Of a stretch of 32,000 nucleotides of DNA, positions 6,903-31,668 are shown one piece after another (within the stretch, counting starts at the first letter, position 1; each line of letters opens with the position of its first letter). Under the pieces are notes generated by a model. It saw only the letters and a list, made by a program, of their open reading frames with translations. It had not been told where the DNA came from and did no database searches. This DNA comes from an uncultured Chloroflexia bacterium (GTDB lineage: Bacteria > Chloroflexota > Anaerolineae > Anaerolineales > Anaerolineaceae). Made by a program: the position numbers and the translations under genes. The stretch is from assembly GCA_963704755.1 (NCBI GenBank), contig OY969938.1:900001-932000 (forward strand), read 5' to 3'.

Positions 6903-7383
6903 ATCTTCTCTCGTCTTCACAGGGTAATAAGGGATTGTTCCAGCCAAAATGGATGAATATACAGACTGGCAATACACAAGGGCACAGAACGCCTCCCCTG
7001 AGGCGTAAAGATTTTAACAGACGAACCGGCACTTGTCGGGTATCCAGGGGCATACTTCAGGTCACAAAAAGGTCACAAATTTTGGCCTTAATATTAAAAA
7101 ACCTCATCGAAAATGAGAAAATCGGGGGAATTTTCCCAAAAATACGGAACCAGTGGTATAATACAAAATTATATTTTTTCGGGGAAACAATACAGGCGTT
7201 TCTTTAACAATCGTCTGCTTTTCTCCTGTTACTGGTAACGTGCAGTAGAATATCTCCCCCGCTAATCTGTTGTACCGTCCTAATTCATTGTCATCACAAC
7301 TTTGTCATCGGCAAAGTTCTGTCATTATACCTGAATGCCAGTGTACGTCTAGTTGGCCTCTTCGCCAGAGGAGAAGATCTGTT

Positions 7384-12036: not shown

Positions 12037-12050
12037 ACTTAGAGGTAATC

Positions 12051-13637: not shown

Positions 13638-14753
13638 CTATTCCCCCTGCAAATCCGAAAGTTCGACGGGAGCTTTCATCGCGGTGGCCCGCGCGACGGC
13701 TGCCGAGCGGGTGTGAATATCCAATTTGCGGAAGATCGCTTTCAAATGGCGTTTGACTGTATTAACCGAAATCACCAGCGTATCGGCAATTTCCTGGTTG
13801 GTCTTGCCTTGGGCCAGCAGGTTGAGGATTTCGTGCTCACGCAGGGTCAACTGATCCAGCTCGTCTTTCGACTGCGAGGCAGATTGGGCTTCTCGTACGG
13901 TGCGCAAGAACGTTTGCCGGTCGAAGGACTGTTTTTCGATAAAGGCAAATACCCCTTTTTCCCGGTAGACCCGTTCGATATCCACCGGTGCGGCCACCCC
14001 GCTGACTACGATAGCCGGCAGCCCCTCTTCGCGGACGGCATCCAGCAATGGATAGCCTTGCGGTTCTCCTTCAGCAGCGGCTTCCGCCCATGAGCCCGCC
14101 CCGCTTAAATCCAGGTCGAGAATGGCCAGGTGATAATGTTCCCGGCGCAGGCTGCCCATGGCTTCCCCAAAACTGGCGCACAACCGTACCTGAAAACCGG
14201 CATCGTTGAGCATCTCGAACAGAATCCCCCGCCAGCCGGCGTCATCTTCGACCACCAAGGCGTGCTTGACGACTACTGCCGGCCGCGGCAAGACTTCCGT
14301 GAATCGCCCGGCATGCGGGGTTACCTCCGCGCTTTCCTTGTGCACCGGCAGGCTGGGTGGGACGCTGGCCAGGGCTTTGTTGATAATGTCTCGGAATTCC
14401 CGGCGTTGAAAGACTTCTTTTTGCAGGCAGGTATAGGCCCCGTACTCTTTAATCGCGCTGACGGCCAGTTCAACTGTGGCAAAGCCAGTCAGCAGCACAG
14501 CTACACAGCCGGGGTCATGCCGGCGGATGATATCCAGCACGCGCAACCCATCCTGGTTATGCGGATCGCGCCCGTCCAATGAGAGATCGACGACTGCGAT
14601 CCGGTGCGGTTGGGCGTGTACCAGCGGAGCGGCCATGTCCAGGCTGTCGGCTACGTCCACGGCAAGCCCGGCGTCATCCAGGATTTCATTCAGGATATCC
14701 TGCCAGGCGTGGCTATCCTCGACGATTAATGCGCGAACGGCCGGCTTTTTCAT
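13638..14753 (-). CDS. response regulator with two receiver domains and a LuxR/FixJ-type HTH output
   Basis: REC1 reads ALIVEDSHAWQDIL...IAVVDLSLDG. REC2 reads ALVVEDDAGWRGIL...LAILDLDLSG. The C-terminal LTLREHEILNLLAQGKTNQEIADTLVISVNTVKRHLKAIFRKLD is a GerE/LuxR HTH. Its ATG overlaps the kinase stop (ATGA), which indicates an operon. Confidence 0.9.
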   Translation of the reverse strand: MKKPAVRALIVEDSHAWQDILNEILDDAGLAVDVADSLDMAAPLVHAQPHRIAVVDLSLDGRDPHNQDGLRVLDIIRRHDPGCVAVLLTGFATVELAVSAIKEYGAYTCLQKEVFQRREFRDIINKALASVPPSLPVHKESAEVTPHAGRFTEVLPRPAVVVKHALVVEDDAGWRGILFEMLNDAGFQVRLCASFGEAMGSLRREHYHLAILDLDLSGAGSWAEAAAEGEPQGYPLLDAVREEGLPAIVVSGVAAPVDIERVYREKGVFAFIEKQSFDRQTFLRTVREAQSASQSKDELDQLTLREHEILNLLAQGKTNQEIADTLVISVNTVKRHLKAIFRKLDIHTRSAAVARATAMKAPVELSDLQGE

Positions 14754-15586
14754 CGCTTCCCCCCGGCCGTTGGCAGGCTCAGGCGGAAAGTGGCTCCATG
14801 GACACCGTCACTTTCGACCGTAACCGCACCACCCAGGCGCACCATCAATGTCTTGACCCACCACAGGCCAAATCCCAATTTGTTCCCGCGAGCCGGTCCT
14901 CGCCCGGAATAATTCAATTCGAAAATACTGCTATGCAGTTCCGGCGGGATGCCCGGGCCTGTATCGCTGACCGCGATATCGACCAGGCCATCGCGAGCAA
15001 AGCCGGTGATGGTGATGTGCCCTTCCCCGCGCATGGCATCGGACGCATTCCCCAACAAGTTGGTAAACACCAGGGTCAGGCTGCGTTTTCCGGCCATAAC
15101 CGGCGGCAGGTCATCCAGATGCTCCAGTTCCACCTGGATTCCCACCGGCAGGTTAGCCCCCTCCAGAGCCGCGCTGACGCTGCCGGCCACTTCCACCTCG
15201 GCGATATTGATCGGCCTCAGGTGCGAAAGGTTATCCCGCACCAATTCCATCGCCTCATTGGCGCTGCGTTCGATTTCGTTCAGATTGGAGGCCAGGTAAG
15301 CATCCGCGATCAAGGCCGGGCGGCACTTATCGCGTATTCCCTGGATGCGCACCGGGATCGTTCCGACTTTATTGTTCAAGTTGTGCAGCACGTTCGCAGT
15401 AATATCCCCGATCGCAGCGAAGGTCTCGGCCACGGCGTGCTGCTCCTGCGCGGCCCGTAACGCTTCCTGGTGGCCGGCATTCTGGACCGAAAGCGCCGCA
15501 TAATAGGCCAGGCAGGAAAGCACCTTTTTATCCCATTCCGAACTCGGTGAAACGCCCGTTTTCCTGATTGGTGCTGTATATGGCAA
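14750..15586 (-). CDS. sensor histidine kinase, catalytic half (DHp H-box plus HATPase_c); probably the frameshifted continuation of 15528..16958
   Basis: The H-box-like segment is FAAIGDITANVLHNLNNKVGTI. The ATP-binding motifs read LTLVFTNLLGNASDAM, DTGPGIP and GFGLWWVKTLMVRLGG. The only start at the 5' end of this ORF is a TTG, and the residues before the H-box (SEWDKKVLSCLAYYAALSVQNA) read like the end of a GAF domain. Confidence 0.8.
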   Translation of the reverse strand: MPYTAPIRKTGVSPSSEWDKKVLSCLAYYAALSVQNAGHQEALRAAQEQHAVAETFAAIGDITANVLHNLNNKVGTIPVRIQGIRDKCRPALIADAYLASNLNEIERSANEAMELVRDNLSHLRPINIAEVEVAGSVSAALEGANLPVGIQVELEHLDDLPPVMAGKRSLTLVFTNLLGNASDAMRGEGHITITGFARDGLVDIAVSDTGPGIPPELHSSIFELNYSGRGPARGNKLGFGLWWVKTLMVRLGGAVTVESDGVHGATFRLSLPTAGGKR

Positions 15587-16958
15587 AGGCTCCCACCGGC
15601 CGGTTGGTATCGCCGGCTAACAGCGGCACGGTCAGCGCATTCACATTCTTATCCAGGTTGGATAGATCCTGCACAGAATCGCCGGATGCTGCAATGACGA
15701 TCGCCCGGCGGCCGTTTAAACTTTTACCGGCCAGGCTGTCGGTCGGGGAAAGGCGTTCGACCGGGTGCAGGCTGCCGCTGGCGGCTTGCAGCATCAACAT
15801 ATCATTCTTAAGGATCCAGATGGCGCTGGTCTCGGCATTTAAAAGATCGCAGGCCAGTTCGACGATCCGCGAAAGGACTTTCGGGTTCGGTTGGGAGAGC
15901 AGGAATTGGGCGACTTCCTGCAGCGCATCCAGCAGACGCACTTCCTGGATGGCGGTTACCGCCTGGGTGGCCAGGGATTGCAGCAGGTGACTGTCCTGGT
16001 CGGTAAATGCGGCTACACGGGGGCTTTCCAGGTTGAGCACGCCCTCCAGCCGGCCGCTGGCGCCGATCAAGGGCACGGCCAGTTCCGAGCGCATCTCCAG
16101 CATCACATCCAGCGGATAATAGACATTTCGCCAGGGGTTTTCGCGCAGGTCGGGGATGCAAACCGGCGTGCGGTTGCGGGCGACCCAGCCCATGACGGTA
16201 TTGGCGCCGGTCGGCAGCGCCTCCACCAACGGCCGGGCCAACCGGTCGCCGGCAATGGCTCGGGTGATCAAATTTTGGCCGGTCTTGTCCAGCAAGCGGA
16301 AGATCCCGTATTGGGCGTTGGTCACTTCCAGCGCCATTTGCAGAATAGCTTCCAGGGTCTCCTCCAGCCGCAGGCGCGAGGAAATCAGCAGCCCGGCCCG
16401 GCGTAACTGTTTCAACTCTTCTTCTTTGCGCGCCAGGTCACGCTGTACCCCCGAGAGGTTATTGGCATGCAAAATCGCCGCCGTGGACAGGTTGGCCAGG
16501 TTTGACAACACCAGTTTTTGCGCCGGCGAAAATGGCACCTGGCCGCGCGTGTTTACCACCATGGCCCCAATCGATACCCCGCTGGCCACGAATGGATAAC
16601 AGGCCTGCACCGGTCCTTCGGGTAAATACAGCGTCGGCGGCTGTTCGTTGGAGAAAATTGGCTGGCGGTCTGTGACCGCCTGGGTAGCCAGAGCTTCCGG
16701 AAAAACACTTGGGTCCATACCTGTGGCGACCAGCGAGTTTGCATCGAAATTTCGTTCCTCTGCCTCGTAGATCACCGCCGCCGCCTCGGAACCCGGAAAT
16801 AAGTCGACGACGGTTTTGGTGATCAGGGTCAACAGGTCTTTCAGGCAAGCGGCATCGCCCACACAAAGGTGGTTAACTGCCAGACTGACCTGATTCAAAT
16901 GAACAAGCGCTTCCAGCAGCCAGGTGTCGGATGAGGGAGAACTTTGTCCAGGGCACAT
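15528..16958 (-). CDS. triple-GAF sensor module (N-terminal part of the histidine kinase)
   Basis: There are three GAF-like units, each ending in an L..LA.QA..AI..-type helix. Examples are FSPAQKLVLSNLANLSTAAILHANNL and FTDQDSHLLQSLATQAVTAIQEVRLL. The third unit is cut at ...GAFAIYSTNQENGRFTEFGMG*. ATG is at 16958. Confidence 0.8.
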   Translation of the reverse strand: MCPGQSSPSSDTWLLEALVHLNQVSLAVNHLCVGDAACLKDLLTLITKTVVDLFPGSEAAAVIYEAEERNFDANSLVATGMDPSVFPEALATQAVTDRQPIFSNEQPPTLYLPEGPVQACYPFVASGVSIGAMVVNTRGQVPFSPAQKLVLSNLANLSTAAILHANNLSGVQRDLARKEEELKQLRRAGLLISSRLRLEETLEAILQMALEVTNAQYGIFRLLDKTGQNLITRAIAGDRLARPLVEALPTGANTVMGWVARNRTPVCIPDLRENPWRNVYYPLDVMLEMRSELAVPLIGASGRLEGVLNLESPRVAAFTDQDSHLLQSLATQAVTAIQEVRLLDALQEVAQFLLSQPNPKVLSRIVELACDLLNAETSAIWILKNDMLMLQAASGSLHPVERLSPTDSLAGKSLNGRRAIVIAASGDSVQDLSNLDKNVNALTVPLLAGDTNRPVGAFAIYSTNQENGRFTEFGMG

Positions 16959-17107: not shown

Positions 17108-18523
17108 TTAGGCATCGTAATACAGGGTGAATTCGTACGGGTGAGGGCGCACACGCACCGCGTCCAGCTCGGTAACCCGCTTGTACTTGATATAGGCTTC
17201 CAGCAGATCAGTGGTGAAAACATCGCCCTTCAACAGGAAGTCGTGATCGGCTTCCAGGGCATCCAGTACGTCACCCAGTGACCCAGGCACCTGCTTGATC
17301 AGGCGAGCCTCTTCGGCGGGCAGTTCATACAAATCTTTATCGATCGGCTCACCCGGATCGATGCGGTTCTGAATACCGTCCAGGCCGGCCATCATCAGTG
17401 CCGAGAAGCACAGGTAGGGGTTGCAAGAAGGGTCCGGAGCGCGGAATTCGATCCGTTTGGCCTTGGGGCTCTTCGAGTAAACCGGGATACGGCAGATTGC
17501 CGAGCGGTTGCGCTGTGAATAAGCCAGGTTGACGGGTGCCTCGAAACCGGGAACGAGACGGCGATACGAATTGGTGGTCGGTGCAGCCAGGGCCAACAGC
17601 GCCGAGGAGTGCTTGAGCAGACCGCCAATATAGTATTTCGCCATATCGGAAAGTTGCGCGTAACCTGATTCGTCGTAGAAAACGTTCTTATCGTCGGTCC
17701 ACAGGCTCTGGTGAACATGCATACCGGAGCCATTGTCACCGAACAGTGGTTTGGGCATAAAAGTAGCGGTCAAGCCGTTCTTGCGGGCCACGTTCTTGAC
17801 GATGTACTTGTACATCAGCAGTTTATCGGCCATACGGGTCAGCGAATCGAAGCGCAAATCGATCTCTGCCTGGCCGGCTGTGGCGACTTCGTGGTGATGG
17901 ACTTCTACTTCCACACCCGCGTCCAACAGTTCCAGGACGATCCGGCTGCGCACATCCTGCATTTGATCGGCCGGTGGTACCGGGAAGTAGCCACGCTTGG
18001 GAGGAATTTGGCTGCCCAGGTTGGGCTTGGATTCGGTTCCACTGTTCCACCAACCCTCGACGCTGTCGACATAATAAAAGGAGGAATTTACCCCTCCGCC
18101 ATATCGTACGTCGTTGAACAGGAAGAACTCAGCTTCAGGGCCCCAATAGCTGGTTTTGGCCAGGCCTGTTTGCGTCAGGTATGCTTCCGCTTTGCGAGCC
18201 ACGTAACGCGGATCGCGCGAATAGGGTTGGCGGGTTAGCGGATCGTACACATCGCAAATGAGCGCCAACGTGGGGATCTCCAGGACCTTGTCGATGAAAG
18301 CAGTCGTCGGATCCAACAGCAAAAGCATATCCGATTCGTGAATTTCCTGGAAGCCACGGATCGACGAGCCGTCGAAACCAATCCCGTCTTCGAATAGAGA
18401 TTCGGTCAACTCGCCAGCCGGGATACTGAAATGCTGCCAGGTCCCCGGTAAATCCGTAAACCGCAGATCTACCATCTGCACTTCCGATTTCAACTTCATT
18501 ACATCTGCAACAGTTTTGGCCAT
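17108..18523 (-). CDS. glnA: glutamine synthetase, type I
   Basis: The 471-aa ORF has GSI motifs: [40 protein letters not shown] and [13 protein letters not shown]. The adenylylation-loop motif DKDLYELP is present (Tyr399, codon 17327-17329). AAGGAGAG precedes the ATG. Confidence 0.95.
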
Positions 18524-18689
18524 ACTAGTTCTCTCCTTGAGAAATGGGGGTAACGACTCTTCCTTTGGCGAAGGAAATGTGCTTTTAACCCTTCAACAGA
18601 TAATTGCTTGCTTGTTGGCCCATTCGAAAACCCCCACCTCATCACCGGTGGAAATTTCCGCTGGAACCAGGAATTCATCAGGCCAAAGC

Positions 18690-18800
18690 AACTACTCAAC
18701 CTGGCGAGTAAGAATCTCGAATTTGAAGTATTTGCGAAGCGAAGCTTCGGTTCGTAAATACTTCAAATTCGTGAACTTTCTTGCACGTGCCTGAGTAGTT
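18690..18800. repeat. nested palindromic element (54-nt near-perfect palindrome inside a 9-bp outer inverted repeat)
   Basis: The inner palindrome is CGAATTTGAAGTATTTGCGAAGCGAAG/CTTCGGTTCGTAAATACTTCAAATTCG (18718-18771). The outer arms are AACTACTCA (18690-18698) and TGAGTAGTT (18792-18800). It is related to 19017-19066. Confidence 0.7.
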
Positions 18801-18928
18801 AAAGACCTGAAACCTATAATTGAATGATGGGGTCATTATAATGATCCCAAAGTCGCTTAACTATTACCCATAGGGGTAATATTCCAACAATATTTCACAC
18901 CCGGGAAATCTATTTGGCCACCCTAAAA

Positions 18929-18992
18929 GAGAGGGGTGTTTTTACTGATTTTCGCGTGCTGCGCACGCGAAAATCAATAAAAATACCCTCTC
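18929..18992. repeat. long imperfect hairpin of the TTTTCGCGTGC...GCACGCGAAAA family
   Basis: The sequence is GAGAGGGGTGTTTTTACTGATTTTCGCGTGC-TGC-GCACGCGAAAATCAATAAAAATACCCTCTC. Its core is identical to the gltD-distal hairpin at 13556-13610. Confidence 0.7.
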
Positions 18993-19016
18993 CTTCTGAA
19001 CCTGCCTGAGCAGTTA

Positions 19017-19066
19017 CGAATATGAGGTATTTGCTGGAGCGAGGACCAGCCAATACCTCATATTCG
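19017..19066. repeat. 21-bp-stem hairpin, second member of the CGAAT(T/A)TGA(A/G)GTATTTGC family
   Basis: The sequence is CGAATATGAGGTATTTGCTGG-AGCGAGGA-CCAGCCAATACCTCATATTCG. It is preceded by CCTGAGCAGTTA; the first member has CCTGAGTAGTTA after it. Confidence 0.7.
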
Positions 19067-19096
19067 AATCCGTTATTCATACCAGCGGTATAAATC

Positions 19097-19125
19097 GCAC
19101 ATCCGGCTGGTCAGGCCGGATGTGC
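19097..19125 (-). terminator. amt terminator hairpin
   Basis: GCACATCCGGC-TGGTCAG-GCCGGATGTGC is a perfect 11-bp stem, 37 nt after the amt stop. The minus-strand tail is GATTTATA. Confidence 0.55.
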
Positions 19126-19161
19126 TCGAAAGGAAAGGAAGTGAAGTTATAACGGATCGTT

Positions 19162-20751
19162 TCAATCCGTCCCAGTTTGTGCAGGATATCCTTCGAAACC
19201 CGGGGCTGCCACGCTACTGAGGGCCTCGGGTGATGGCACCCAGTCCTTCGGGTAGCCTTCGGCACCCATTTCGGGCAGGTCGAGACCGGCCAGCTCGTCT
19301 TGCGGCGAGACCCGCATCAGTTTCAAAGCCGCCAGGATCTTGAATAATACATATGAAGTGACAAAGGTCCCAATGAATATTGCCGCCACTTCGCTTAATT
19401 GCGCCAGGATTTGAGTCCCGCCGCCGTACAACAGACCTGTGACCGGGGTGGCAACGCCGTTCCAGCCGGCCGTATCAGGATTACCGTTAGCGAAGATACC
19501 CACCGCCAGTACACCCCAGATACCATTGAAGAAATGGACCGGGATTGCGCCCACCGGGTCGTCGATCTTCCATCTCTCCAGCATCGCGCTGGCCACGCAC
19601 ACCCAGACGCCGGCGACCAGGCCAATCACAACCGCTGCCCAACTGGATACGAATGCGCACGGGGCGGTAATGGCCACCAGGCCGGCCAGAATACCGTTGA
19701 CCGACATGGCCGGATCCGGCTTCTTGGTTGAGCCGCTGACCCACATGTAGAACATAGCCGCACAGCCCGCCGCAGCGCCGGCCAGCAGGGTATTGATGGC
19801 CGCAATGGTGGCCAGGTTACGCGCACCGCCGACAAAGCCCAACGCTGAACCAGGATTGAACCCGAACCAACCGAAGAACAGGATGACCGTACCCAGAACG
19901 CCCAGGGGGATGTTGTGGCCCGGGATGGTGTTGGCCGTGCCATCCTTGTTGAACTTGCCGATCCTTGCCCCCAACACAATTGCACCGGCCAGGCCGACTG
20001 CACCTCCGACCATGTGCACCACGCCTGAACCGGCAAAATCAACTGCACCGTTGCCAAAACCGACCGTCCTGCCCAGGTTGGCTAACCAGCCACCACCCCA
20101 GACCCAGTTACCGATCATCGGGTACACGAACATACTTACCCAAAAGCCCATCAGCACAAAGCCTATGAACTTGAGCCGTTCCGCCATCGAGCCGGTCGGG
20201 ATGGTTGCGGCGGTGTCCATGAACACCATTTGGAACAGGAAGAAGGCCAGCACGCCAAAGTTTGCCCCCAGGCCGCCCAGCAGGAAGCCCTTCAAGCCCA
20301 ATACGCCTGAGCCGCCGATCAGCAGGGGTTTATCCAGCAAACCGGTCCAATCGCCCAAGGTGGTGGGAGAGAACGCCCAACTTCCCAGGCTGTGGATCGC
20401 CGGATAAGTGAAGTTGACGCCTCCAAATTGGAACGCAAAACCGGTCAGCCAGTAGCCAATTGCGCCGATACAGAACACCATCATGTTCATCATCATGGTG
20501 TGGGCCACGTTCTTGGCCCGGGTAAAACCCGTCTCCACCAGGGCAAACCCGGCCTGCATAAAGAAGACCAGGAAACCGGTCACCAATACCCACAGTACGT
20601 TGATGCTTACGACAGCGTCACTGGTGGTATCGGACAGTTGTTGGATATCAGGCGGCGGTGCATCGGCTTTTACAATCGATGTGCGCGCGATCAACAAAAC
20701 GGCCAGGACAACGAATAGAATTGCCCATTTAAGTGAAAGTAACTTTTTCAT
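19162..20751 (-). CDS. amt: ammonium transporter (Amt family) with N-terminal signal peptide
   Basis: Amt signatures are present: FFMQAGFALVETGFTRAKNVAHTMMMN, AVDFAGSGVVHMVGG and FFGWFGFNPGS. The signal-like N-terminus is MKKLLSLKWAILFVVLAVLLIA. There are roughly 11 hydrophobic segments. Confidence 0.95.
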   Translation of the reverse strand: MKKLLSLKWAILFVVLAVLLIARTSIVKADAPPPDIQQLSDTTSDAVVSINVLWVLVTGFLVFFMQAGFALVETGFTRAKNVAHTMMMNMMVFCIGAIGYWLTGFAFQFGGVNFTYPAIHSLGSWAFSPTTLGDWTGLLDKPLLIGGSGVLGLKGFLLGGLGANFGVLAFFLFQMVFMDTAATIPTGSMAERLKFIGFVLMGFWVSMFVYPMIGNWVWGGGWLANLGRTVGFGNGAVDFAGSGVVHMVGGAVGLAGAIVLGARIGKFNKDGTANTIPGHNIPLGVLGTVILFFGWFGFNPGSALGFVGGARNLATIAAINTLLAGAAAGCAAMFYMWVSGSTKKPDPAMSVNGILAGLVAITAPCAFVSSWAAVVIGLVAGVWVCVASAMLERWKIDDPVGAIPVHFFNGIWGVLAVGIFANGNPDTAGWNGVATPVTGLLYGGGTQILAQLSEVAAIFIGTFVTSYVLFKILAALKLMRVSPQDELAGLDLPEMGAEGYPKDWVPSPEALSSVAAPGFEGYPAQTGTD

Positions 20752-20970: not shown

Positions 20971-21414
20971 TCAATACCAGCCGACTACGCCCTTCAAGAA
21001 CACCAGCGAGGAAGCCAGGACCATGATCACAATGGTAGGTGGAGCGGCGATCAGCATCCAGCGTTTCCAGCCAATTGGCCCGTGGTTGCGTTCGATGAAA
21101 GTGTAGGCAACCACATTGGCCGATGCGCCGATCGGAGTCAGGTTTCCGCCGATATCGATGCCCAGGGCCAGTGACCAGACCATCAAGGCCAGGGCAGGCA
21201 TGTTCGGGAAGTGCGAGAGGTCCTTCAAGATGTAGGACATGGCTAAAGCTAGCGGTACATTATCGACCACCCCGCTGAGCAGGCCTGGGCCCCAATGCAG
21301 GGCCATAACCAGCGCCGAGGGGTTGAGTTTTCCGGCCGAAGACAACAGCGTCGCCAGCGAGTTCGAACACCCGTGCTTTTTCCAGGCCGCCCACCAGGAC
21401 GAAGAGCCCGGCAA
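20971..21414 (-). CDS. ArsB/NhaD-superfamily permease, C-terminal fragment (frameshifted relative to 21260..22276)
   Basis: From about nt 21345 downward the translation is transporter-like: LLSSAGKLNPSALVMALHWGPGLLSGVVDNVPLALAM...GIDIGGNLTPIGASANVV. The first approximately 20 residues of the track ORF are out-of-frame noise. Confidence 0.7.
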   Translation of the reverse strand: MPGSSSWWAAWKKHGCSNSLATLLSSAGKLNPSALVMALHWGPGLLSGVVDNVPLALAMSYILKDLSHFPNMPALALMVWSLALGIDIGGNLTPIGASANVVAYTFIERNHGPIGWKRWMLIAAPPTIVIMVLASSLVFLKGVVGWY

Positions 21415-22276
21415 AAAAGAGAATGTTCTCCCCGTCCACCCGTAACAATACGGTCTTGCGATGCTTGGCGCTCAAGAAAAGCAGGGCAAAAGCAGCCGGG
21501 ATGAGCGCCGCTTCGGCTGCGTTGATCGGTATGCCTATCGCGTCCGAAAGCGGACGGTGGATAACTAACAAAGTGACCGCCACGAGGAAGGAAGTCAATC
21601 CGATTTTGGTCAGGTCTTTCTGCAGAGGTTCTTTATTGAACTCTTCCATCTCCTGGCCAATCTCGGAAGAGATATTCTCATGGGCAGCCATCAATATGCG
21701 CCGGTTGGCCAGGTAGAAGATGCCTACCAGGATCAAGCAGGCCACGGCCGAAATCGGGCCGGTGTGCGCCGCGAAATCACTGAAGTTGTACCCTAACACG
21801 GTTCCCAGGATGACATTAGGTGGATCGCCGACCAGGGTCGCCGCGCCACCGGTATTGGCCGCACACACCTCGGCGATAACCATCGGCACCGGGTCGATTT
21901 TGAGCAGTTTGCACAACTGTACCGTCAGGGCCGAGAGGAACATCATCACCGTGATGCTGTCCATGAACATCGCCAGGCCACCGGCCATCAACACCAGCAC
22001 GATAAACAATAACGCAGGGTGATACTTGACCGTCCGGATGGCGGTCATCGCCAGCCAGGAGAAAAACCCGGCTTCCATTAAGATCGAAACCAGGACGAAC
22101 ATTCCCGAAAGCAAACCGAGCGTTTCCCAATTGACAGCTTGAAAAGCGTCCAGGGGAGTCAACACTTTGGTAATCAACAGCATCGCAGCTCCACCTAACG
22201 CCACCCAATGGCGGGGAAGCTTCTCGCTGGCAATGGCTACATAGACAATAACGAAAATGATTAACGCTTTAAGCAT
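21260..22276 (-). CDS. ArsB/NhaD-superfamily (citrate-transporter-like) permease, N-terminal fragment
   Basis: This is a polytopic membrane protein (...AEVCAANTGGAATLVGDPPNVILG...FFAGLFVLVGGLEK...). After about nt 21345-21390 the frame degenerates into the Gly/Pro/Arg-rich tail GRKTQPLGAGYGPALGPRPAQRGGR. The continuation is in the overlapping ORF 20971..21414. Confidence 0.75.
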   Translation of the reverse strand: MLKALIIFVIVYVAIASEKLPRHWVALGGAAMLLITKVLTPLDAFQAVNWETLGLLSGMFVLVSILMEAGFFSWLAMTAIRTVKYHPALLFIVLVLMAGGLAMFMDSITVMMFLSALTVQLCKLLKIDPVPMVIAEVCAANTGGAATLVGDPPNVILGTVLGYNFSDFAAHTGPISAVACLILVGIFYLANRRILMAAHENISSEIGQEMEEFNKEPLQKDLTKIGLTSFLVAVTLLVIHRPLSDAIGIPINAAEAALIPAAFALLFLSAKHRKTVLLRVDGENILFFAGLFVLVGGLEKARVFELAGDAVVFGRKTQPLGAGYGPALGPRPAQRGGR

Positions 22277-22567
22277 AAGACACCTGTCATGGTTATCATG
22301 CGACCGGTCTAAACTGACCGGAATATTTCTACTTGTTTGTACAGGTTCTGCACATATATATTGGACTATTGTAGGGAGCCGAAGAGCGTATTTCTATACC
22401 CCTTATGGAGCATTTTAGCAGGTCGTTTCGCCCCCTAAAAACCGCTTAAAACGGGTACCCATTACCTTTATGGGTACATTTTCGGTAAAAAAGGGTAATA
22501 TTTGGATTGTCTGCGAGGGATTTGCCCGGCTTACCGGCCGCGGGCGTATAATTTTTATCAACACATC

Positions 22568-25500
22568 ATGGACAATTCATTCGAGAAAACCGCAGAAACT
22601 GCCTTTCCCTGGCCAACCCTCTATAATCGCTTGCTCTCCGCCGACCGGGAGACGGTCCGGCGGATCATTGCCCGTTTGATGGCCGGCGATGGCCGCGGTG
22701 CGGTCATCGATGCGCTGCTGCCGAGCCTGCTGACTGAATTTGCCGAGACTGCCGACCCGGTGCGCGGATTGGTCTGTTTCGAGCGTTTCATCAATCGTTT
22801 CGATGATCCCCTGCCTGTGCTGCAACTGCTGGCCAATAACCCCCGCGCAGTCGAAATTCTGGGGAAAGTCTTTTCGGGCAGCCAGTTCCTCACCGAAACG
22901 CTGATCCGCACCCCGCAGGCCTTCGAGCAGTTGATTGCCTACCGGCGCACGGCTCGCCCGAAAAGCTCGGAGCAGCTTTTCAATGAAATACTCATCGACC
23001 TGGCTCACCAGGGGCCAATCGAGGACCAGCTCAACGCCTTGCGCTGTTTTCAAAGCCGGGAAATGCTGCGGATTGGCGCCTGCGATCTGCTCGATTTGTA
23101 TGACCTACCGGCCGTCATTCGCCAGCTATCCAACCTGGCGGATGCCTTGATCCGCGTCTGCCTCAAGCTGGCAGCCGCTCAGGTGGGTGCAACCCCCGAG
23201 CAGTTGACGGTACTGGGTATGGGCAAGTTAGGCGGGCGTGAGCTCAACTACAGTTCCGATATCGATTTACTTTTTATTACGTCCGCGCACCCGGCCGAGG
23301 CTGAGCGCGTTGGCAAGCAGTTGATCGATAACCTGGCTCACATTACCTCGGATGGTTTTCTGTACCGGGTGGATATGCGCCTGCGCCCGTGGGGACAGGT
23401 TGGCCCGCTGGTCACCACCGTGCCGGGATATTTGAATTACCTGCAAAAAAACGCCCGCTGGTGGGAAAAACAGGCCTTATTGAAAGTGCGGGTCATCGCC
23501 GGCGACCTGGAAGCCGGGCGCAGCCTGCTGGAACAGGTCCGGCCGCTGCTCCTGGGCGGCTCGTACGATGATCTCCAGGCTTCCGTGCGTGAGATGAAGC
23601 AGCGCACCGAAGAACAATTGCGCCAGAAAGGGCGCGAATGGGGCGAGGTCAAGCTGGGCCAGGGCTCCATCCGCGATGTGGAATTTACCACCCAGTTCTT
23701 GCAACTGGCCTACGGCGAAACCCACCCGGAGGTGCTTTCACCAAACACGCTGGATGGGCTGGTACGCCTGGCCACAGCGGCCCTGATCAGCCCGGATGAT
23801 TACCGCACCCTGGCCGAGGGTTACGTCTTTCAGCGCACCATCGAACACTTCCTGCAAATTATGGATTATCGCCAGACCCACAGCCTGCCAGAAGACCCGG
23901 CTGCCCAGGCTGCCCTTGCCCGGCGCCTGGGGTTCAGGGGAGAAGACCCGGGTAAGAATTTCGTCGAACGATACACCCAGCATGTGGCCGCGATCCGCGA
24001 TGTGTACCTGCATTATGTGGGAGGCAGCAGTATGAAACCTGTCGGCAGTACTGACCCCGAATTCAGCCCAACCGGGGCTAACCAGGCCCAGATCCACCAC
24101 CACCTCGACCGCATGGCGCCTTCTTACGCAGAAGTTTATTCTGCGGACGAGATCGCCCGGCACGCCGCGTTGGCTGCCCTCCTGAATAGCGACAACCCGG
24201 TGGAAGTGGAAGCCAGCCGCTCGGAAGACGGCTCCTGGCACGTAACCGTGGTCGCCTACGACTTTGCCGGCGAGTTTTCCGCCATCACCGGGCTGCTGTT
24301 CGTCTATGGGTTGAACATCCTTACCGGCGAGGCTTTCACCTACGAACCGCTCAAAGATAGCACCACCTTGCAGGCTGCCCGCGATACCCGCCGCAAGATC
24401 GTGGATGTGTTTAACGTATACCCCTCTGAAGGTATTCAGGTCGATGCGAACACCTGGACACGCTATGCCCAGGACCTGGCCCACTACCATCACGTCTCGC
24501 GCAGCGATATGCAAGGCGACCTCATCCGCCGGGTGGCCCACGGGCTGCAAGGCCACGAAACCACCGCCGAAAAAGAGGCCGTCCCGGCTTTGTACCCGAT
24601 CGGCATCGAAATCGATAACAGCGCCAGCCCGCAAAGTACGGTCTTGCGGATCGACGCCCAGGACACCATCGGCTTCCTGTACGAGTTGACCAACGCACTG
24701 GCGGTCAGCGGCGTGTATATCGAGCGAGTCATGATCGATACGGTCGGCAGCCAGGTCCGCGATGTCCTCTTCGTGACCAATCAGAACGGCCAAAAAATTA
24801 CCTTACCGGACAAACAGCAGGAACTGCGCGCGGCGACTGTATTAATCAAGCATTTCACCCACCTGCTGCCATTTTCACCCAACCCCGAGTCGGCCCTGGT
24901 CCATTTCCGCGATTTCATCGATCAGCTCTTCCACCGACCCAATTGGACTAACGAATTGACCTCGGTCCAGCAGCCCGAAGTCCTCCAGGCCCTGGCCCGT
25001 GTGTTGGGCGTCAGCGACTTCCTCTGGGATGATTTCCTGCGTATGCAGTACGCCAACCTCTTCCCGGTGGTTACCGATATGGATTCCCTCGAGACGGCCA
25101 AATCCCGCCAGCGTTTGCAAACCGAGCTGGAAGCTACCCTCAGCCGGGTGCATGCCGGTCCGCAGGTACCCAGCCAGGATGCCGCCTGGATCGAGAAATT
25201 GACCGCCTGGCGCGACCGCGAAATGTTCCGCATCGATATGCGCCACATCCTGGGCCAGACCCAAGAATTTTGGGACTTCGCCGAAGAATTAACCGACCTG
25301 GCCGAGGTGATCACCAACGCCACCTTCCACCTGTGCCACGAAGATTTGCGCCTGTTGTATGGCTCACCGCTCAAAGAGGACGGCAGCCCCAGCCAGATGT
25401 GTGTGCTCGCCCTGGGCAAGTTCGGTGGCCACGAGCTAGGCTTTGCCTCCGACATCGAGCTCATGTTCGTGTACGACGGCAATGGTTCGACCAGCGGGCC

Positions 25501-26248
25501 CAAGGTGATTTCCACGGCCGAGTTTTACGAGAAGGTAGTCGAAGCCTACGTACCCGCCACCCGCGCACGCCGTGAGGGCATTTTCCAGGTGGACTTGCAA
25601 CTGCGCCCCTACGGCAAGATCGGCAGCCTGGCCGTATCGCTGGAATCCTTCCGGCGCTATTACTCCCAGGGCGGCCCGGCCTGGGCTTACGAGCGCCAGG
25701 CCCTGGTCCGCTTGCGCCCGGTGGCCGGCGACAGGCACCTGGGCGCAGAAGTCGCCCAACTGCGCGACAAGTACGTCTATACCGGCGAGCCCTTCGACGT
25801 GACGTCCATGCGGGCCATGCGCGAACGCCAGTTGCGTCACCTGGTGCAGGCCGGCAGCTTCAACCTCAAGTACAGCCTGGGCGGGCTGGTCGATATCGAA
25901 TACCTGGTGCAAGGACTGCAAATCGCCAACGGGCACAGATTACCCGCCCTGCGCCAGACCAACACCCGCGCCTCCCTGGCCGCCCTGGCGGATGCGGGCC
26001 TCCTTTCCCCAGAAACCTACACGCACTTACGCAAAGCCCATACCTTTCTGCGCTGGCTGATCGATTCCCTGCGCGTGGTACGCGGCAACGCCCGGGATGT
26101 GACCCTGCCGGCCGAAGACAGCGAAGAATTTGCCTTTCTGGCCCGGCGGATGCGCTACGGCGACGACACTGCCCGCCTGTATCAGGAGCTGCTCAGCTAC
26201 ACCGCCTACGTCCGCGAAGCCAACCGGGTCTTGCTGCCACGGGGATAG
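22568..26248 (+). CDS. glnE: bifunctional glutamine synthetase adenylyltransferase/adenylyl-removing enzyme GlnE, with an internal ACT-ACT-like insertion
   Basis: Two nucleotidyltransferase cores are present: GMGKLGGRELNYSSDIDLLF and ALGKFGGHELGFASDIELMFVY. Each is followed by RLRPxG and G(S/G)xxD(V/I)E(F/Y) motifs. I prefer the start at ATG 22568 (MDNSFEK), which gives 1226 aa. Extra sequence of about 250 aa lies at nt 24095-24855. Confidence 0.9.
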   Translation: MDNSFEKTAETAFPWPTLYNRLLSADRETVRRIIARLMAGDGRGAVIDALLPSLLTEFAETADPVRGLVCFERFINRFDDPLPVLQLLANNPRAVEILGKVFSGSQFLTETLIRTPQAFEQLIAYRRTARPKSSEQLFNEILIDLAHQGPIEDQLNALRCFQSREMLRIGACDLLDLYDLPAVIRQLSNLADALIRVCLKLAAAQVGATPEQLTVLGMGKLGGRELNYSSDIDLLFITSAHPAEAERVGKQLIDNLAHITSDGFLYRVDMRLRPWGQVGPLVTTVPGYLNYLQKNARWWEKQALLKVRVIAGDLEAGRSLLEQVRPLLLGGSYDDLQASVREMKQRTEEQLRQKGREWGEVKLGQGSIRDVEFTTQFLQLAYGETHPEVLSPNTLDGLVRLATAALISPDDYRTLAEGYVFQRTIEHFLQIMDYRQTHSLPEDPAAQAALARRLGFRGEDPGKNFVERYTQHVAAIRDVYLHYVGGSSMKPVGSTDPEFSPTGANQAQIHHHLDRMAPSYAEVYSADEIARHAALAALLNSDNPVEVEASRSEDGSWHVTVVAYDFAGEFSAITGLLFVYGLNILTGEAFTYEPLKDSTTLQAARDTRRKIVDVFNVYPSEGIQVDANTWTRYAQDLAHYHHVSRSDMQGDLIRRVAHGLQGHETTAEKEAVPALYPIGIEIDNSASPQSTVLRIDAQDTIGFLYELTNALAVSGVYIERVMIDTVGSQVRDVLFVTNQNGQKITLPDKQQELRAATVLIKHFTHLLPFSPNPESALVHFRDFIDQLFHRPNWTNELTSVQQPEVLQALARVLGVSDFLWDDFLRMQYANLFPVVTDMDSLETAKSRQRLQTELEATLSRVHAGPQVPSQDAAWIEKLTAWRDREMFRIDMRHILGQTQEFWDFAEELTDLAEVITNATFHLCHEDLRLLYGSPLKEDGSPSQMCVLALGKFGGHELGFASDIELMFVYDGNGSTSGPKVISTAEFYEKVVEAYVPATRARREGIFQVDLQLRPYGKIGSLAVSLESFRRYYSQGGPAWAYERQALVRLRPVAGDRHLGAEVAQLRDKYVYTGEPFDVTSMRAMRERQLRHLVQAGSFNLKYSLGGLVDIEYLVQGLQIANGHRLPALRQTNTRASLAALADAGLLSPETYTHLRKAHTFLRWLIDSLRVVRGNARDVTLPAEDSEEFAFLARRMRYGDDTARLYQELLSYTAYVREANRVLLPRG

Positions 26249-29129: not shown

Positions 29130-29202
29130 TGCCTCCACAGAGATTCGAACTCTGGTTTTAGCCTTGAAAGGGCTGCGTCCTGGTCCCCTAGACGATGGAG
29201 GC
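29130..29202 (-). tRNA. tRNA-Glu (anticodon UUC), CCA not encoded
   Basis: I folded it by hand as GCCTCCA TC GTCT AGGGGACCA GGAC G CAGCC CTTTCAA GGCTA AAAC CAGAG TTCGAAT CTCTG TGGAGGC A. The D-arm and anticodon loop closely parallel E. coli tRNA-Glu (GUCUAGAGGCCCAGGAC...CUUUCAC). Confidence 0.9.
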
Positions 29203-30717: not shown

Positions 30718-31668
30718 TTAATTACACGTCAGGTTGAGGTCGTATTCCGGGAAGAGCTGGTGGTTGGGGTTATCGATGTAAACTTTGACCCAGCCACTGA
30801 AGTTGGAATCGACTTCCATATCGTATCCCACGCTGCGCGTGGTGGCGCTATCGAAGGTGATCGACTTGGAATCGGATTTTGTCCCATCCGAGCGTTGCCA
30901 GTAATACGAAACTTCACCTTTGGCAGTGGTCGTAATCGCGGCTGTCAGGTGGAAGGTGTACGGGCAATTCGCAGTGACGTTGGCATTATCCACGCTGACA
31001 GAAACTTTGTTGACTGCAAACGGTACCGAGGTGCTGCCTACCGTAATTTTGACCCAAAACGAGTCTTGCCCATTCGAGCCCAGGCCAAAGCTGGTCCCGC
31101 TGGCATCCTGGAGCTTCCAGTAGCTTTCGTAATCGTCTGCCGTACCCGGCGCAACCATATTGACCGAAATATCGATAGTGTCACCCGGTGCGACTGTGTC
31201 GGGCAAGTTGAAACTGGCCGGAGCGCCCATCGAGACACCGGAATCGAAGACTACCCGATAGCTATTCGTCCAGGTACATGACCCGTTATTCTTCAAACGC
31301 CAGGTTTTGACGAAACTTGCACCGGGAGCAAAAGTGGTCCCATCCGGAACAGTCAAATCTTTCACAAATTCGGCCCGGTTACAGGGCAAAGCCGTAGGGG
31401 CGCCGGCGATGGTTGCCGAGGCCTGGGGAGTGAAAGTCGGTGTAACGGACGAAACCGGCAAAATGGTCGGGGCGCTGGTGATATCTGAAGGCGGAGGGGT
31501 ACCCTGCGGAGCGAGCAGCGTCGAAAGCGCATCCACGGTTTGGGCTGCCGCCGTACTGATCACATCCCCCGTTGGCGTGAGGGCCTGGTTTGGGCGTGGT
31601 AAATTGCAAGACGCCAGTACCAGGGCAGCCATAAGAACAAAGATGAAGAAAACAAATAGCTTACGCAA
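30718..31668 (-). CDS. secreted lipoprotein with an NBR1-type Ig-like (beta-sandwich) domain
   Basis: The lipobox signal peptide is MRKLFVFFIFVLMAALVLASC. A Pro/Thr-rich linker follows. The NBR1-like motif reads CNRAEFVKDLTVPDGTTFAPGASFVKTWRLKNNGSCTWTNSYRVVFDSG...YESYWKLQDASGTSFG. A second beta-rich domain follows. Confidence 0.8.
   Translation of the reverse strand: MRKLFVFFIFVLMAALVLASCNLPRPNQALTPTGDVISTAAAQTVDALSTLLAPQGTPPPSDITSAPTILPVSSVTPTFTPQASATIAGAPTALPCNRAEFVKDLTVPDGTTFAPGASFVKTWRLKNNGSCTWTNSYRVVFDSGVSMGAPASFNLPDTVAPGDTIDISVNMVAPGTADDYESYWKLQDASGTSFGLGSNGQDSFWVKITVGSTSVPFAVNKVSVSVDNANVTANCPYTFHLTAAITTTAKGEVSYYWQRSDGTKSDSKSITFDSATTRSVGYDMEVDSNFSGWVKVYIDNPNHQLFPEYDLNLTCN

Follow-up and report, generated by a model that had tools for sequence, protein, structure and literature searches.

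Control of glutamine synthetase (GS) by adenylylation is a textbook signalling cascade and, to our knowledge, the glutamine site of the adenylylating enzyme GlnE has never been structurally defined. The glnE gene in a 32-kb window (the whole stretch of DNA analysed, 32,000 nt) from an uncultured member of the Anaerolineaceae raises the question of why a GlnE should carry, between its two catalytic halves, a segment resembling the C-terminal ACT domains of the uridylyltransferase GlnD, and what that segment would do there. The gene, its halves and its presumed substrate lie as follows.

22568-26248, + strand: glnE, consisting of AR half, GlnD-type ACT module and AT half; 1226 aa plus stop (ORF list, Pfam, NCBIfam).
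22568-24022, + strand: N-terminal adenylyl-removing (AR) half, aa 1-485 (BLASTP to E. coli GlnE; match to PDB 1v4a, E = 4.9e-47).
23216-23275, + strand: AR nucleotidyltransferase motif GMGKLGGRELNYSSDIDLLF, aa 217-236, almost invariant in 116 homologues.
24875-26245, + strand: C-terminal adenylyltransferase (AT) half, aa about 770-1226 (BLASTP to E. coli GlnE; second Pfam copies of GlnE and GlnD_UR_UTase).
25409-25468, + strand: AT nucleotidyltransferase motif ALGKFGGHELGFASDIELMF, aa 948-967, with S, D and E invariant among homologues.
17108-18523, - strand: glnA, type I glutamine synthetase, the presumed substrate, with the Tyr399 codon at 17327-17329 (Pfam Gln-synt_N and Gln-synt_C).

The glnE open reading frame spans 22502-26248 (+), with an ATG at 22568 as the likely start of a 1226-aa product that is 100% identical to a database protein (P0001). 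Pfam analysis revealed PF03710 in two stretches (E = 6.7e-99), each followed by one of two stretches of PF08335 (GlnD_UR_UTase; E = 1.9e-41), the tandem arrangement by which GlnE is recognised, and the GlnE catalytic motif G-x-G-K-x-G-G-x-E-L...S-D-[IL]-[DE] was present in both halves and conserved in homologues. E. coli GlnE (946 aa; PDB 1v4a, 3k7d) likewise has two nucleotidyltransferase (NT) halves, each with a GlnD_UR_UTase-type helical domain. The window GlnE shares 29.5-33% identity with it over the aligned halves (residues 101-485 on E. coli 35-437; 866-1162 on 604-908) and retains the catalytic motifs in both. Judged from where the BLASTP blocks end and start, approximately 380 residues lie between the aligned halves compared to approximately 170 in E. 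coli; in total the window GlnE is about 280 residues longer, and a GlnD-type ACT pair at the junction accounts for about 250 of these. The insert also splits the NCBIfam alignments, with PRK11072 barely over its cut-off (488.3 against 487 bits) and PRK14109 (499.4 against 625 bits) and PRK14108 (360 against 724 bits) below theirs. A preliminary description of this locus had judged both halves intact, had placed NT cores close to nt 23216-23275 and 25409-25468, and had stated that the GS retains its adenylylation tyrosine; the paired Pfam domains, the motifs at these positions and Tyr399, which lies within DKDLYELP, agree with it throughout. The adjoining GS gene with this tyrosine is a further likeness to E. 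coli GlnE, and a glnA with the conserved tyrosine adjoined glnE in every Anaerolineae locus examined. These sequence features are best explained by a genuine bifunctional GlnE, which would AMPylate and de-AMPylate the neighbouring GS at Tyr399.

The region between the halves was divided into six elements.

24023-24082, + strand: tether from AR half to ACT module, aa 486-505, poorly conserved and probably flexible (low pLDDT; consensus mostly 'x').
24083-24178, + strand: pre-ACT helices, aa 506-537, HL.R....Y......I..H, corresponding by homology to the part of GlnD immediately ahead of ACT1 (hhalign columns 2-60; model helices 30-61).
24200-24487, + strand: ACT1, aa 545-640, with the beta1-alpha1 loop D565-x-x-G568 (AlphaFold2; GlnD tail alignment; D89, G92 and G99 invariant in alignment A1).
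24500-24568, + strand: helical linker between ACT1 and ACT2, aa 645-667 (AlphaFold2 helix 169-187, or 169-191 in a longer model).
24602-24778, + strand: ACT2, aa 679-737, with invariant D699-T-x-G702-F-L-Y (PF24931, PF01842, AlphaFold2; D223, G226 and F227 invariant in the alignment).
24806-24916, + strand: junction helix linking ACT2 to the AT half, aa 747-783, ELRAATVLIKHFTHLLPFSPNPESAL..F, conserved throughout the three architectures described below (pLDDT above 90).

The insert had originally been delimited at nt 24095-24855, corresponding to aa 510-762, and interpreted as a GlnD-type tandem ACT module, an assignment on which GlnD profiles, predicted fold and profile-profile alignment all agree. 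Homology to the C-terminal tail of GlnD extends over residues about 505-756 and takes in the pre-ACT helices, ACT1 and ACT2. The insert alone (aa 490-780) matched the GlnD models PRK05092 (E = 1.1e-21; positions 688-918 of 940), TIGR01693 (E = 4.9e-21; 616-844 of 850) and PRK03381 (E = 2.2e-16), in each case colinearly. All 22 modules taken from three architectures matched GlnD models, and hhalign of these modules against seven GlnD tails gave a probability of 99.9% (E = 2e-31, 230 columns). This match to the GlnD ACT tail is far beyond chance. ACT2 was also detected by Pfam above the cut-off, as PF24931 (ACT_ACR9_3rd; 30.2 and 32.8 bits, cut-off 27), together with PF01842 (E = 0.0014). The Pfam scan proposed in the preliminary description thus returned GlnE twice, GlnD_UR_UTase twice and one ACT domain. 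ACT1 had no Pfam match in the window GlnE and was recognised through the GlnD models, hhalign and AlphaFold2; weak matches of ACT1 to PF26956 (ACT_ACR_D1) occurred in some homologues. Profile methods were needed because pairwise BLASTP of the whole protein with E. coli GlnD was marginal (19% identity, E = 0.019). When the insert alone was searched by sequence against the PDB, nothing meaningful was matched and no solved structure of a GlnD tail emerged. Overall the nearest profile relatives of the pair were the ACT domains of GlnD and ACR proteins, in tandem and colinear.

The likeness to GlnD is confined to its tail. The last approximately 230 residues of GlnD are colinear with the insert including the pre-ACT1 helices, and the D-x-x-G loops are common to both. 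The window GlnE differs from GlnD in having no HD domain detectable by Pfam, in scoring far under the GlnD cut-offs over its full length (113-133 bits against 519-959, the match covering only the ACT tail and the common NT region), and in identities of 19-26% to GlnD tails. The module also continues through the junction helix into the AT half, whereas GlnD ends there: the GlnD matches stopped 6-22 positions short of the model end, and the hhalign match covered columns 25-256 of 271. Y520 and H532 of the pre-ACT helices and the beta1-alpha1 loop residues were invariant among homologues, and the loop motifs were conserved across phyla as well.

A similar protein might arise through mis-assembly or through a gene-calling error that fused GlnE to part of a GlnD, and two other window genes are frameshifted, so the assembly is not error-free. 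We consider such an artefact extremely improbable and rejected it. The gene is one uninterrupted ORF, it contains no HD domain or second GlnD part, and the insert was present in 115 of 115 homologues at 50-70% identity. The AR-ACT-AT layout occurred in >100 Anaerolineae clusters at 90% identity, 56-69% identical to the window GlnE, and these independent proteins, matched at full coverage, include one from the complete genome of the cultured Anaerolinea thermophila UNI-1 (AP012029).

The AlphaFold2 model of aa 477-793 (pLDDT 88.6, pTM 0.85) contains two beta-alpha-beta-beta-alpha units, both with pLDDT above 90. In model numbering, ACT1 is predicted to consist of strands 69-75 and 81-88, helix 93-103, strands 106-115 and 134-143 and helix 151-164, and ACT2 of strands 203-207 and 215-222, helix 227-237 and strands 241-250 and 253-261. 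With the invariant D-x-x-G, both units have the fold of the ACT superfamily. Foldseek comparison, a check that had been suggested for this insert, placed ACT-containing proteins at the top of the PDB matches, at probability 1.0, among them large GDH (7jsr/9hv*), aspartate kinase (3l76) and the ACT-like domain of GL3 (9c7n), the last with a target-normalised TM-score of 0.79. Taken over both domains together, the model scored low (TM-scores of 0.2-0.33). Threonine dehydratase and SerB2 were, with aspartate kinase, among the neighbours. The pLDDT of the tether fell below 50 (model residues 1-19, aa 477-495; residues 1-24, aa 477-500, in the longer model). The longer model, of aa 477-1226, reached pLDDT 85.3 and pTM 0.73, with pLDDT of 54-64 at aa about 797-836, and it positions the ACT pair against the AT half with no more than moderate confidence.

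The architecture proved to be far from rare. In addition to the >100 Anaerolineae clusters, the module was found in a stand-alone ACT-AT layout and in a permuted one, ACT-AT-AR, the latter in at least 300 species genomes of the Desulfobacterota, Spirochaetota and PVC phyla. A scan of genome contigs with five permuted-type modules, in which Anaerolineae were not sampled, yielded 80 loci, 74 of them ACT-AT-AR, a proportion biased towards the permuted layout because of the queries used. One locus (L008) contained a complete stand-alone ACT-AT gene, and a scan of metagenome contigs with the window insert gave six loci. In the permuted and stand-alone relatives (Desulfobacterota, Spirochaetota, PVC, FCPU426), the module including pre-ACT and junction helices is alike at 25-33% identity and the ACT pair directly precedes the AT half, as in the window GlnE; they differ in having the domains in exchanged order or in having no AR half. 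Among the 150 best cluster representatives, an AT-type domain followed the ACT pair in all 101 cases with at least 150 aa following, and upstream of the pair was either the protein start or an AR half. Of the 70 permuted loci with room for it, 46 had glnA immediately upstream in the same orientation. The preliminary description knew of no characterised GlnE with this architecture, and our literature search likewise found no paper joining GlnE and ACT domains. We conclude that the design is genuine, that it is common in several phyla that have received little study, and that it has apparently not been described.

What the ACT pair might do is suggested by its position and relatives. On balance we lean slightly towards a ligand sensor, most probably for glutamine, that would gate the AT activity of GlnE. 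In such a mechanism a GlnD-tail homologue (helical segment and two ACT domains) would be set exactly at the boundary of the GlnE halves, loosely tethered to the AR half and joined by the conserved helix to the very start of the AT half. The pair would bind a small metabolite of nitrogen status at its beta1-alpha1 loops (D565-x-x-G and D699-T-x-G-F-L), and the signal would pass via the junction helix to the AT half, shifting the AT/AR balance and turning on GS AMPylation at plentiful nitrogen. Coupling to the AT half is supported by the constant adjacency of ACT pair and AT half in the three layouts and by the disordered tether on the AR side compared to the confident, conserved junction on the AT side; in ordinary GlnE, too, it is the AT domain on which glutamine acts (bioRxiv 10.64898/2026.09.02.748916). 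Glutamine is the most probable ligand by analogy with GlnD and the plant ACR proteins. For GlnD, the evidence for glutamine sensing by its ACT domains, as cited in PMC11190351, is genetic (Zhang et al., 2010). Plant ACR11 and ACR9 and Chlamydomonas AMA2 belong to the same ACT subfamily as the insert, ACT2 being matched by ACT_ACR9_3rd, and such proteins have been linked to GS/GOGAT control or activation by glutamine (PMC3173338; PMC11190351). They differ from the window GlnE in that ACR proteins consist of ACT repeats only and AMA2 of an N-terminal ACT domain and an alpha-amylase (PMC11190351), neither being fused to a GS-modifying nucleotidyltransferase. The ligands of ACT domains are varied, however, and pairwise similarity to E. 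coli GlnD is weak, both of which count against a glutamine sensor.

It had further been suggested that the enzyme may read glutamine directly through its ACT pair. Direct reading would be no novelty for a GlnE: in the ACT-less GlnE of E. coli and H. seropedicae glutamine already acts on the AT domain (bioRxiv 10.64898/2026.09.02.748916). PII and PII-UMP provide input to E. coli GlnE, and its glutamine sensing resides in the AT domain. Another glutamine site would therefore be partly redundant. This bears on a second explanation, that the ACT pair senses another ligand (another amino acid, glutamate, 2-oxoglutarate or a nucleotide) as a second input beside the glutamine reading of the AT domain, which in ACT-less GlnE is cooperative with ATP. 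Some genomes encode both the module and GlnD, and the identity between the module and the GlnD tail encoded alongside it is just 22-26%, so the specificities could differ; the Foldseek neighbours aspartate kinase, threonine dehydratase and SerB2 bind varied ligands. We nonetheless consider a ligand other than glutamine clearly unlikely, as GlnD models, and not those of other ACT families, were the best match of every module tested, and the modules have kept the Asp and Phe residues of GlnD/ACR type that were highlighted in ACT proteins responding to glutamine. Still less probable, and in our view very unlikely, is a mainly structural module, acting as spacer, oligomerisation element or docking surface for GS or PII with no small-molecule ligand. 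ACT domains often mediate dimerisation, E. coli GlnE has a mere linker at the same site, and the E. coli inter-domain region has been implicated in intramolecular signalling, all of which would suit such a role. However, conservation is strongest in the beta1-alpha1 loops, whose motifs are those usual for ligand sites of ACT domains, and not in surface patches. ACT-AT and ACT-AT-AR proteins, moreover, still begin with the module, a position that rules out a role as spacer between halves.

If the ACT pair is a glutamine sensor acting on the AT half, the next question is whether it replaces the GlnD-PII relay, and here the other nitrogen genes of the window are informative.

19162-20751, - strand: amtB ammonium transporter, with no adjacent glnK (Pfam PF00909).
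7270-13544, + strand: gltB-gltD glutamate synthase (Pfam).

The preliminary description had reported a cluster lacking PII and GlnD genes. We observed the same: no ORF for PII was present in 18400-19300 and no PII match anywhere in the 32-kb window, and neither PII nor GlnD genes were found in the window and about 13 related Anaerolineae/Chloroflexota loci. The window and these loci total approximately 265 kb centred on glnA, glnE, amtB and gltB, the window being 32 kb of a 4.87-Mb genome. A glnK neighbour accompanied none of five amtB genes in the Anaerolineae/Chloroflexota loci compared to 16 of 17 in Desulfobacterota/PVC loci. The literature search found nothing on PII in Anaerolineae. The GlnEs of S. 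coelicolor and mycobacteria are proteins of roughly 1000 aa that are not known to carry ACT domains. They provide a precedent for control of GS AMPylation with no PII relay, S. coelicolor GlnE functioning without PII or GlnD, and differ from the window GlnE in that their sensing mechanism has not been ascribed to an ACT module; the GlnB-GlnE-GS pathway varies among bacterial groups (bioRxiv 10.64898/2026.09.02.748916). In addition, glnD is reported to be universal in proteobacteria and actinobacteria alone, with scattered occurrence in other groups (PMC4285133).

The nitrogen loci free of PII and GlnD genes, the amtB genes lacking a glnK neighbour, the sporadic glnD and the S. coelicolor precedent would fit a self-contained switch in Anaerolineae. 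There ACT-GlnE would replace the GlnD-PII relay: glnD would be missing from the genome, PII would not act on GlnE, and the sole nitrogen signal would be the glutamine that the ACT pair reads. We nevertheless regard this as rather unlikely. PII genes are often unlinked and the coverage is of nitrogen loci only, while the sampled amtB genes belong to a single orthologue group of about 525 aa with a CitMHS gene in front, and a second amtB-glnK pair may lie elsewhere. Furthermore, six Desulfobacterota loci (L012, L014, L018, L022, L027, L053) encoded ACT-GlnE within 20 kb of canonical GlnD (NT-HD-ACT), PII and amtB. As the homologous ACT-AT unit coexists with these proteins, the module alone does not imply loss of the cascade and in general is no substitute for it. 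The earlier suggestion that this enzyme may collapse the cascade into one polypeptide is thus supported in part: Anaerolineae nitrogen loci free of PII and GlnD genes are consistent with it, whereas the glutamine sensing of ordinary GlnE and the six Desulfobacterota loci weaken it.

A broader form of the glutamine-sensor reading is that the ACT pair and the AT half constitute an ancient mobile 'sensor-writer' cassette, which would convert glutamine level into GS AMPylation without PII in three layouts (Chloroflexota, Desulfobacterota, Spirochaetota, PVC) and would be the sole post-translational nitrogen sensor in Anaerolineae. We put this forward tentatively, as a possibility somewhat short of probable. 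If true, the three-protein enterobacterial cascade would be one evolutionary solution among several, and in this family a glutamine site of GlnE would for the first time be open to structural study. If the ACT pair senses glutamine, a single domain family would connect the sensing by GlnE with that by GlnD and plant ACR proteins. A large unstudied GlnE family with a discrete putative sensor module always wired to the AT half is in any case a clean experimental handle: the ACT domain is isolable and its loop residues are obvious targets for mutation. The family also shows that the pairing of this module with the AT half survives when the catalytic halves are permuted or split. The host lineages (Anaerolineae, Desulfatiglandales, Spirochaetota and PVC phyla) are abundant in the environment.

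An Rfam scan found no regulatory RNA in the window. One further pair of genes is syntenic with glnA and glnE across Anaerolineae.

13638-16958, - strand: GerE-type response regulator and multi-GAF histidine kinase, frameshifted here (Pfam).

The frameshifts in the two other window genes lie at about 15541-15570 and about 21353-21432. Synteny of the regulator and kinase was observed at seven loci (L005, L090, L091, L092, L096, L097, L098).

The most plausible start codon of the window's glnE open reading frame (22502-26248, plus strand) is the ATG at 22568, which yields a protein of 1226 aa in which two GlnE nucleotidyltransferase and two GlnD_UR_UTase helical domains were identified (Pfam). 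Both halves are thus intact, as the preliminary description had it, with the catalytic motifs at the sites it gave:

aa 217-236 (nt 23216-23275, plus strand), catalytic motif of the adenylyl-removing (AR) half, GMGKLGGRELNYSSDIDLLF
aa 948-967 (nt 25409-25468, plus strand), catalytic motif of the adenylyltransferase (AT) half, ALGKFGGHELGFASDIELMF

The protein barely passed the NCBIfam model for E. coli-type GlnE (PRK11072; 488.3 bits against a cut-off of 487). In a PDB sequence search its N-terminal half matched an N-terminal-domain structure (1v4a) and, as a paralogous match, a C-terminal-domain structure (3k7d). When aligned with E. coli GlnE, aa 101-485 paired with 35-437 and aa 866-1162 with 604-908, leaving approximately 380 residues between the cores compared to approximately 170 in E. 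coli. The longer stretch includes the ACT module, placed at 24095-24855 (aa 510-762).

This insert is a GlnD-like tandem ACT module, as had been read from the sequence alone. Searched by itself (aa 490-780), it matched the GlnD equivalog model PRK05092 (E=1.1e-21, model positions 688-918 of 940), TIGR01693 (E=4.9e-21, positions 616-844 of 850) and PRK03381 (E=2.2e-16), with matches to several GlnD models colinear across the entire C-terminal tail. ACT2 exceeded the gathering score of the Pfam ACR9-like ACT model; ACT1, with no Pfam match, was supported by profiles and structure prediction. In a profile-profile comparison, 22 GlnE-borne modules aligned with the GlnD tails of six Desulfobacterota and E. 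coli (probability 99.9%, E=2e-31, 230 columns), and all 22 matched GlnD models. The alignment began in the pre-ACT helices, indicating that the entire GlnD tail was the transferred unit and not generic ACT domains alone. Assignment of the window protein as a GlnD was rejected, the HD domain being absent. An AlphaFold2 model of the insert region (115 homologues; pLDDT 88.6, pTM 0.85) contained the following elements:

aa 477-495, disordered tether to the AR half
aa 506-537, three short pre-ACT helices
aa 545-640, ACT1, a beta-alpha-beta-beta-alpha unit
long helix between ACT1 and ACT2
aa 679-737, ACT2, a second beta-alpha-beta-beta-alpha unit
long junction helix from ACT2 to the AT half, confidently modelled

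ACT-containing proteins ranked first in a Foldseek search of the PDB, with matches to the ACT-rich N-terminal region of a mycobacterial large glutamate dehydrogenase, aspartate kinase, the threonine dehydratase regulatory domain, the tandem-ACT proteins 2nyi and 1u8s, and the GL3 ACT-like domain (target-normalised TM 0.79); low whole-model TM scores are expected of a query with two domains. The ACT pair is therefore present in GlnE, predicted by the model to be flexibly tethered to the AR half, whereas its connection with the AT half is conserved and modelled with confidence.

Relatives of the window GlnE numbered 6741 in the protein database. The best 120, which included proteins named Anaerolineaceae, Anaerolineae, Anaerolinea thermolimosa and the cultured A. 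thermophila, were nearly all 1200-1290 aa, with 56-69% identity over full coverage. The insert was kept in 116 of 116 aligned relatives at 50-70% identity, and D565, G568 and G575 in the beta1-alpha1 loop of ACT1 and D699, G702 and F703 in that of ACT2 were invariant. ACT domains of the GlnD/ACR/AMA2 type are marked by a conserved Asp and Phe (PMC11190351). A purely structural role for the module is unlikely. An insert-only search of a 50%-identity representative library recovered 2073 proteins at E<=1e-3, of which 80 reached E<=1e-30. The possibility that ACT-bearing GlnE is an artefact was excluded.

Probes from the window's AR half, ACT module and AT half assigned the best 150 database representatives to three layouts:

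AR-ACT-AT (window type), approximately 1200-1250 aa
ACT-AT, stand-alone, approximately 730-780 aa (e.g., P0164, P0168, P0202, P0218, P0236)
ACT-AT-AR, circularly permuted, approximately 1235-1275 aa among representatives and 1250-1350 aa in loci L010-L089

Where the ACT pair was followed by at least 150 residues, an AT-type domain came next in every case (101 of 101 proteins); upstream lay the protein start (100 of the best 150) or the AR half (49). The ACT-to-AT adjacency is thus kept when the halves are permuted and when the AR half is lost. Common to the three layouts are the pre-ACT helices, the loop motifs of both ACT domains and, after ACT2, a conserved helix (L..A.VLIKQFTHLLP.[AS]P[DN]P..AL..F) with which the AT half begins. 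The stand-alone gene was complete in locus L008 (10001-12244), approximately 2 kb from a glnA, and no AR half was found within or adjoining genes for stand-alone proteins; the permuted gene was complete in L006 and L007. In one representative of 999 aa (P0145) the module begins at aa 280 and the approximately 280 residues before it match neither GlnE half, which may represent a fourth layout with an unfamiliar N-terminal domain.

When permuted-type modules were used to scan GTDB genomes, one for each species, at least 300 stretches matched; this choice of query biases the range of taxa sampled for the permuted form. The 80 best-matching loci came from Desulfobacterota (Desulfatiglandales including strain NaphS2, Desulfobacterales, Smithella), Spirochaetales, Verrucomicrobiota, Kiritimatiellae, Lentisphaerae, Planctomycetota, candidate division FCPU426, a Sandaracinaceae MAG and one Chloroflexota MAG, with the ACT-AT-AR layout in 74. 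Seventy of the permuted loci had room upstream, and in 46 of them the gene immediately preceding glnE on its own strand was a glnA, usually with the tyrosine motif DK[DN]IYDLP. A distant AR-ACT-AT cluster had members named Spirochaetia. The cultured strain NaphS2 (ADZZ01000144, L047) carries a permuted glnE.

The preliminary description knew of no characterised GlnE of this architecture; we likewise found no description in the literature searched, although the layout itself is common rather than rare. No paper combined GlnE (glutamine synthetase adenylyltransferase) with ACT domains, and none of the top-ranked papers linked glnE with Anaerolineae, Chloroflexota or Desulfatiglans. Database annotation names these proteins only as glutamine synthetase adenylyltransferase, and their precomputed Pfam matches already include an ACT domain. 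The GlnE enzyme and ACT sensor families are each known, but no earlier description seems to exist of their fusion, of the three layouts it takes or of the invariant sensor-AT unit.

Genes for nitrogen assimilation precede glnE in the window:

7270-13544, gltB-gltD
13638-16958, minus strand, GerE-type response regulator and multi-GAF histidine kinase
17108-18523, glnA, glutamine synthetase (GS), which carries Tyr399 as previously noted
19162-20751, minus strand, amtB, 529 aa, with a signal-peptide-like N-terminus
20971-21414 and 21260-22276, minus strand, open reading frames of a CitMHS/ArsB-family permease adjoining amtB upstream

The pairing of glnA with glnE recurred in Anaerolineae loci, where the response regulator and GAF kinase usually flanked it and gltB did so in some. 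The kinase (relatives of approximately 690-760 aa) and GerE/LuxR-type regulator were syntenic with glnA, glnE and often gltB in the window, L005, L090, L091, L092, L096, L097 and L098. They form a candidate nitrogen two-component system that could take the place of NtrBC, and the GAF domains may sense metabolites. The window kinase is split into overlapping reading frames (15528-16958 and 14750-15586, minus strand), with a switch from frame -1 to -2 at approximately 15541-15570 against the intact L096 orthologue (tblastn), either a sequencing error or a pseudogene. The permease has a similar frameshift (approximately 21353-21432, minus strand, frame -2 to -3) against the intact L099 orthologue (tblastn); the permease-amtB pair is kept in L099 and L100. 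The listed gltD, with its GTG start at 11871, shares 166 nt (11871-12036) with the end of gltB, and its true start is probably further downstream.

The ACT-bearing GlnE had been proposed to collapse the GlnD-PII-GlnE cascade into one polypeptide. The gene content of the Anaerolineae loci agrees with this: no PII or GlnD gene was found in the 32-kb window or the related Anaerolineae loci examined, none of the five amtB genes of this orthologue group (window, L004, L099, L100, L101) had glnK beside it, and the 640-bp glnA-amtB spacer (18524-19161) held no open reading frame with a family match and no Rfam match. PMC4285133 limits glnD ubiquity to proteobacteria and actinobacteria. However, a PII gene adjoined amtB in 16 of 17 cases in permuted-type loci, and six of these loci (L012, L014, L018, L022, L027, L053) encode canonical GlnD (NT-HD-ACT, 878-931 aa), PII and amtB within 20 kb of glnA-glnE(ACT-AT-AR). 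The module is therefore not simply a remnant of GlnD/PII loss, and it is rather doubtful that Anaerolineae gate GS AMPylation through the ACT pair without any PII or GlnD. The GlnD tail and GlnE module of one genome share only 22-26% identity, so they are old paralogues.

We lean slightly towards a mechanism in which the ACT pair would bind a nitrogen-status ligand, most probably glutamine, at its loop motifs, the bound pair would gate the AMPylation that the AT half carries out on Tyr399 of GS, and the AT/AR balance would thereby be set. GlnD has a single glutamine site (PMC4285133), and its glutamine response needs its ACT domains (PMC11190351). Direct glutamine reading, which had been suggested for this fusion, is not special to it: in E. 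coli and H. seropedicae, GlnE lacks ACT domains and senses glutamine directly via its AT part, in a manner cooperative with ATP. The R. rubrum enzyme shows no glutamine response, and S. coelicolor GlnE works independently of PII and GlnD (bioRxiv 10.64898/2026.09.02.748916). That the pair senses some other ligand seems improbable, at roughly one chance in a few.

Three minor features were also recorded. A tRNA gene (29130-29202, minus strand) was the sole Rfam match in the window at the gathering threshold. In one Anaerolineae genome (L005), glnA and glnE are separated by a 110-aa gene with no Pfam match (9469-9801, minus strand). In the wider neighbourhood, both the window (30718-31668, minus strand) and L098 (18428-18982) encode a protein that carries an NBR1-type Ig-like domain (PF16158).
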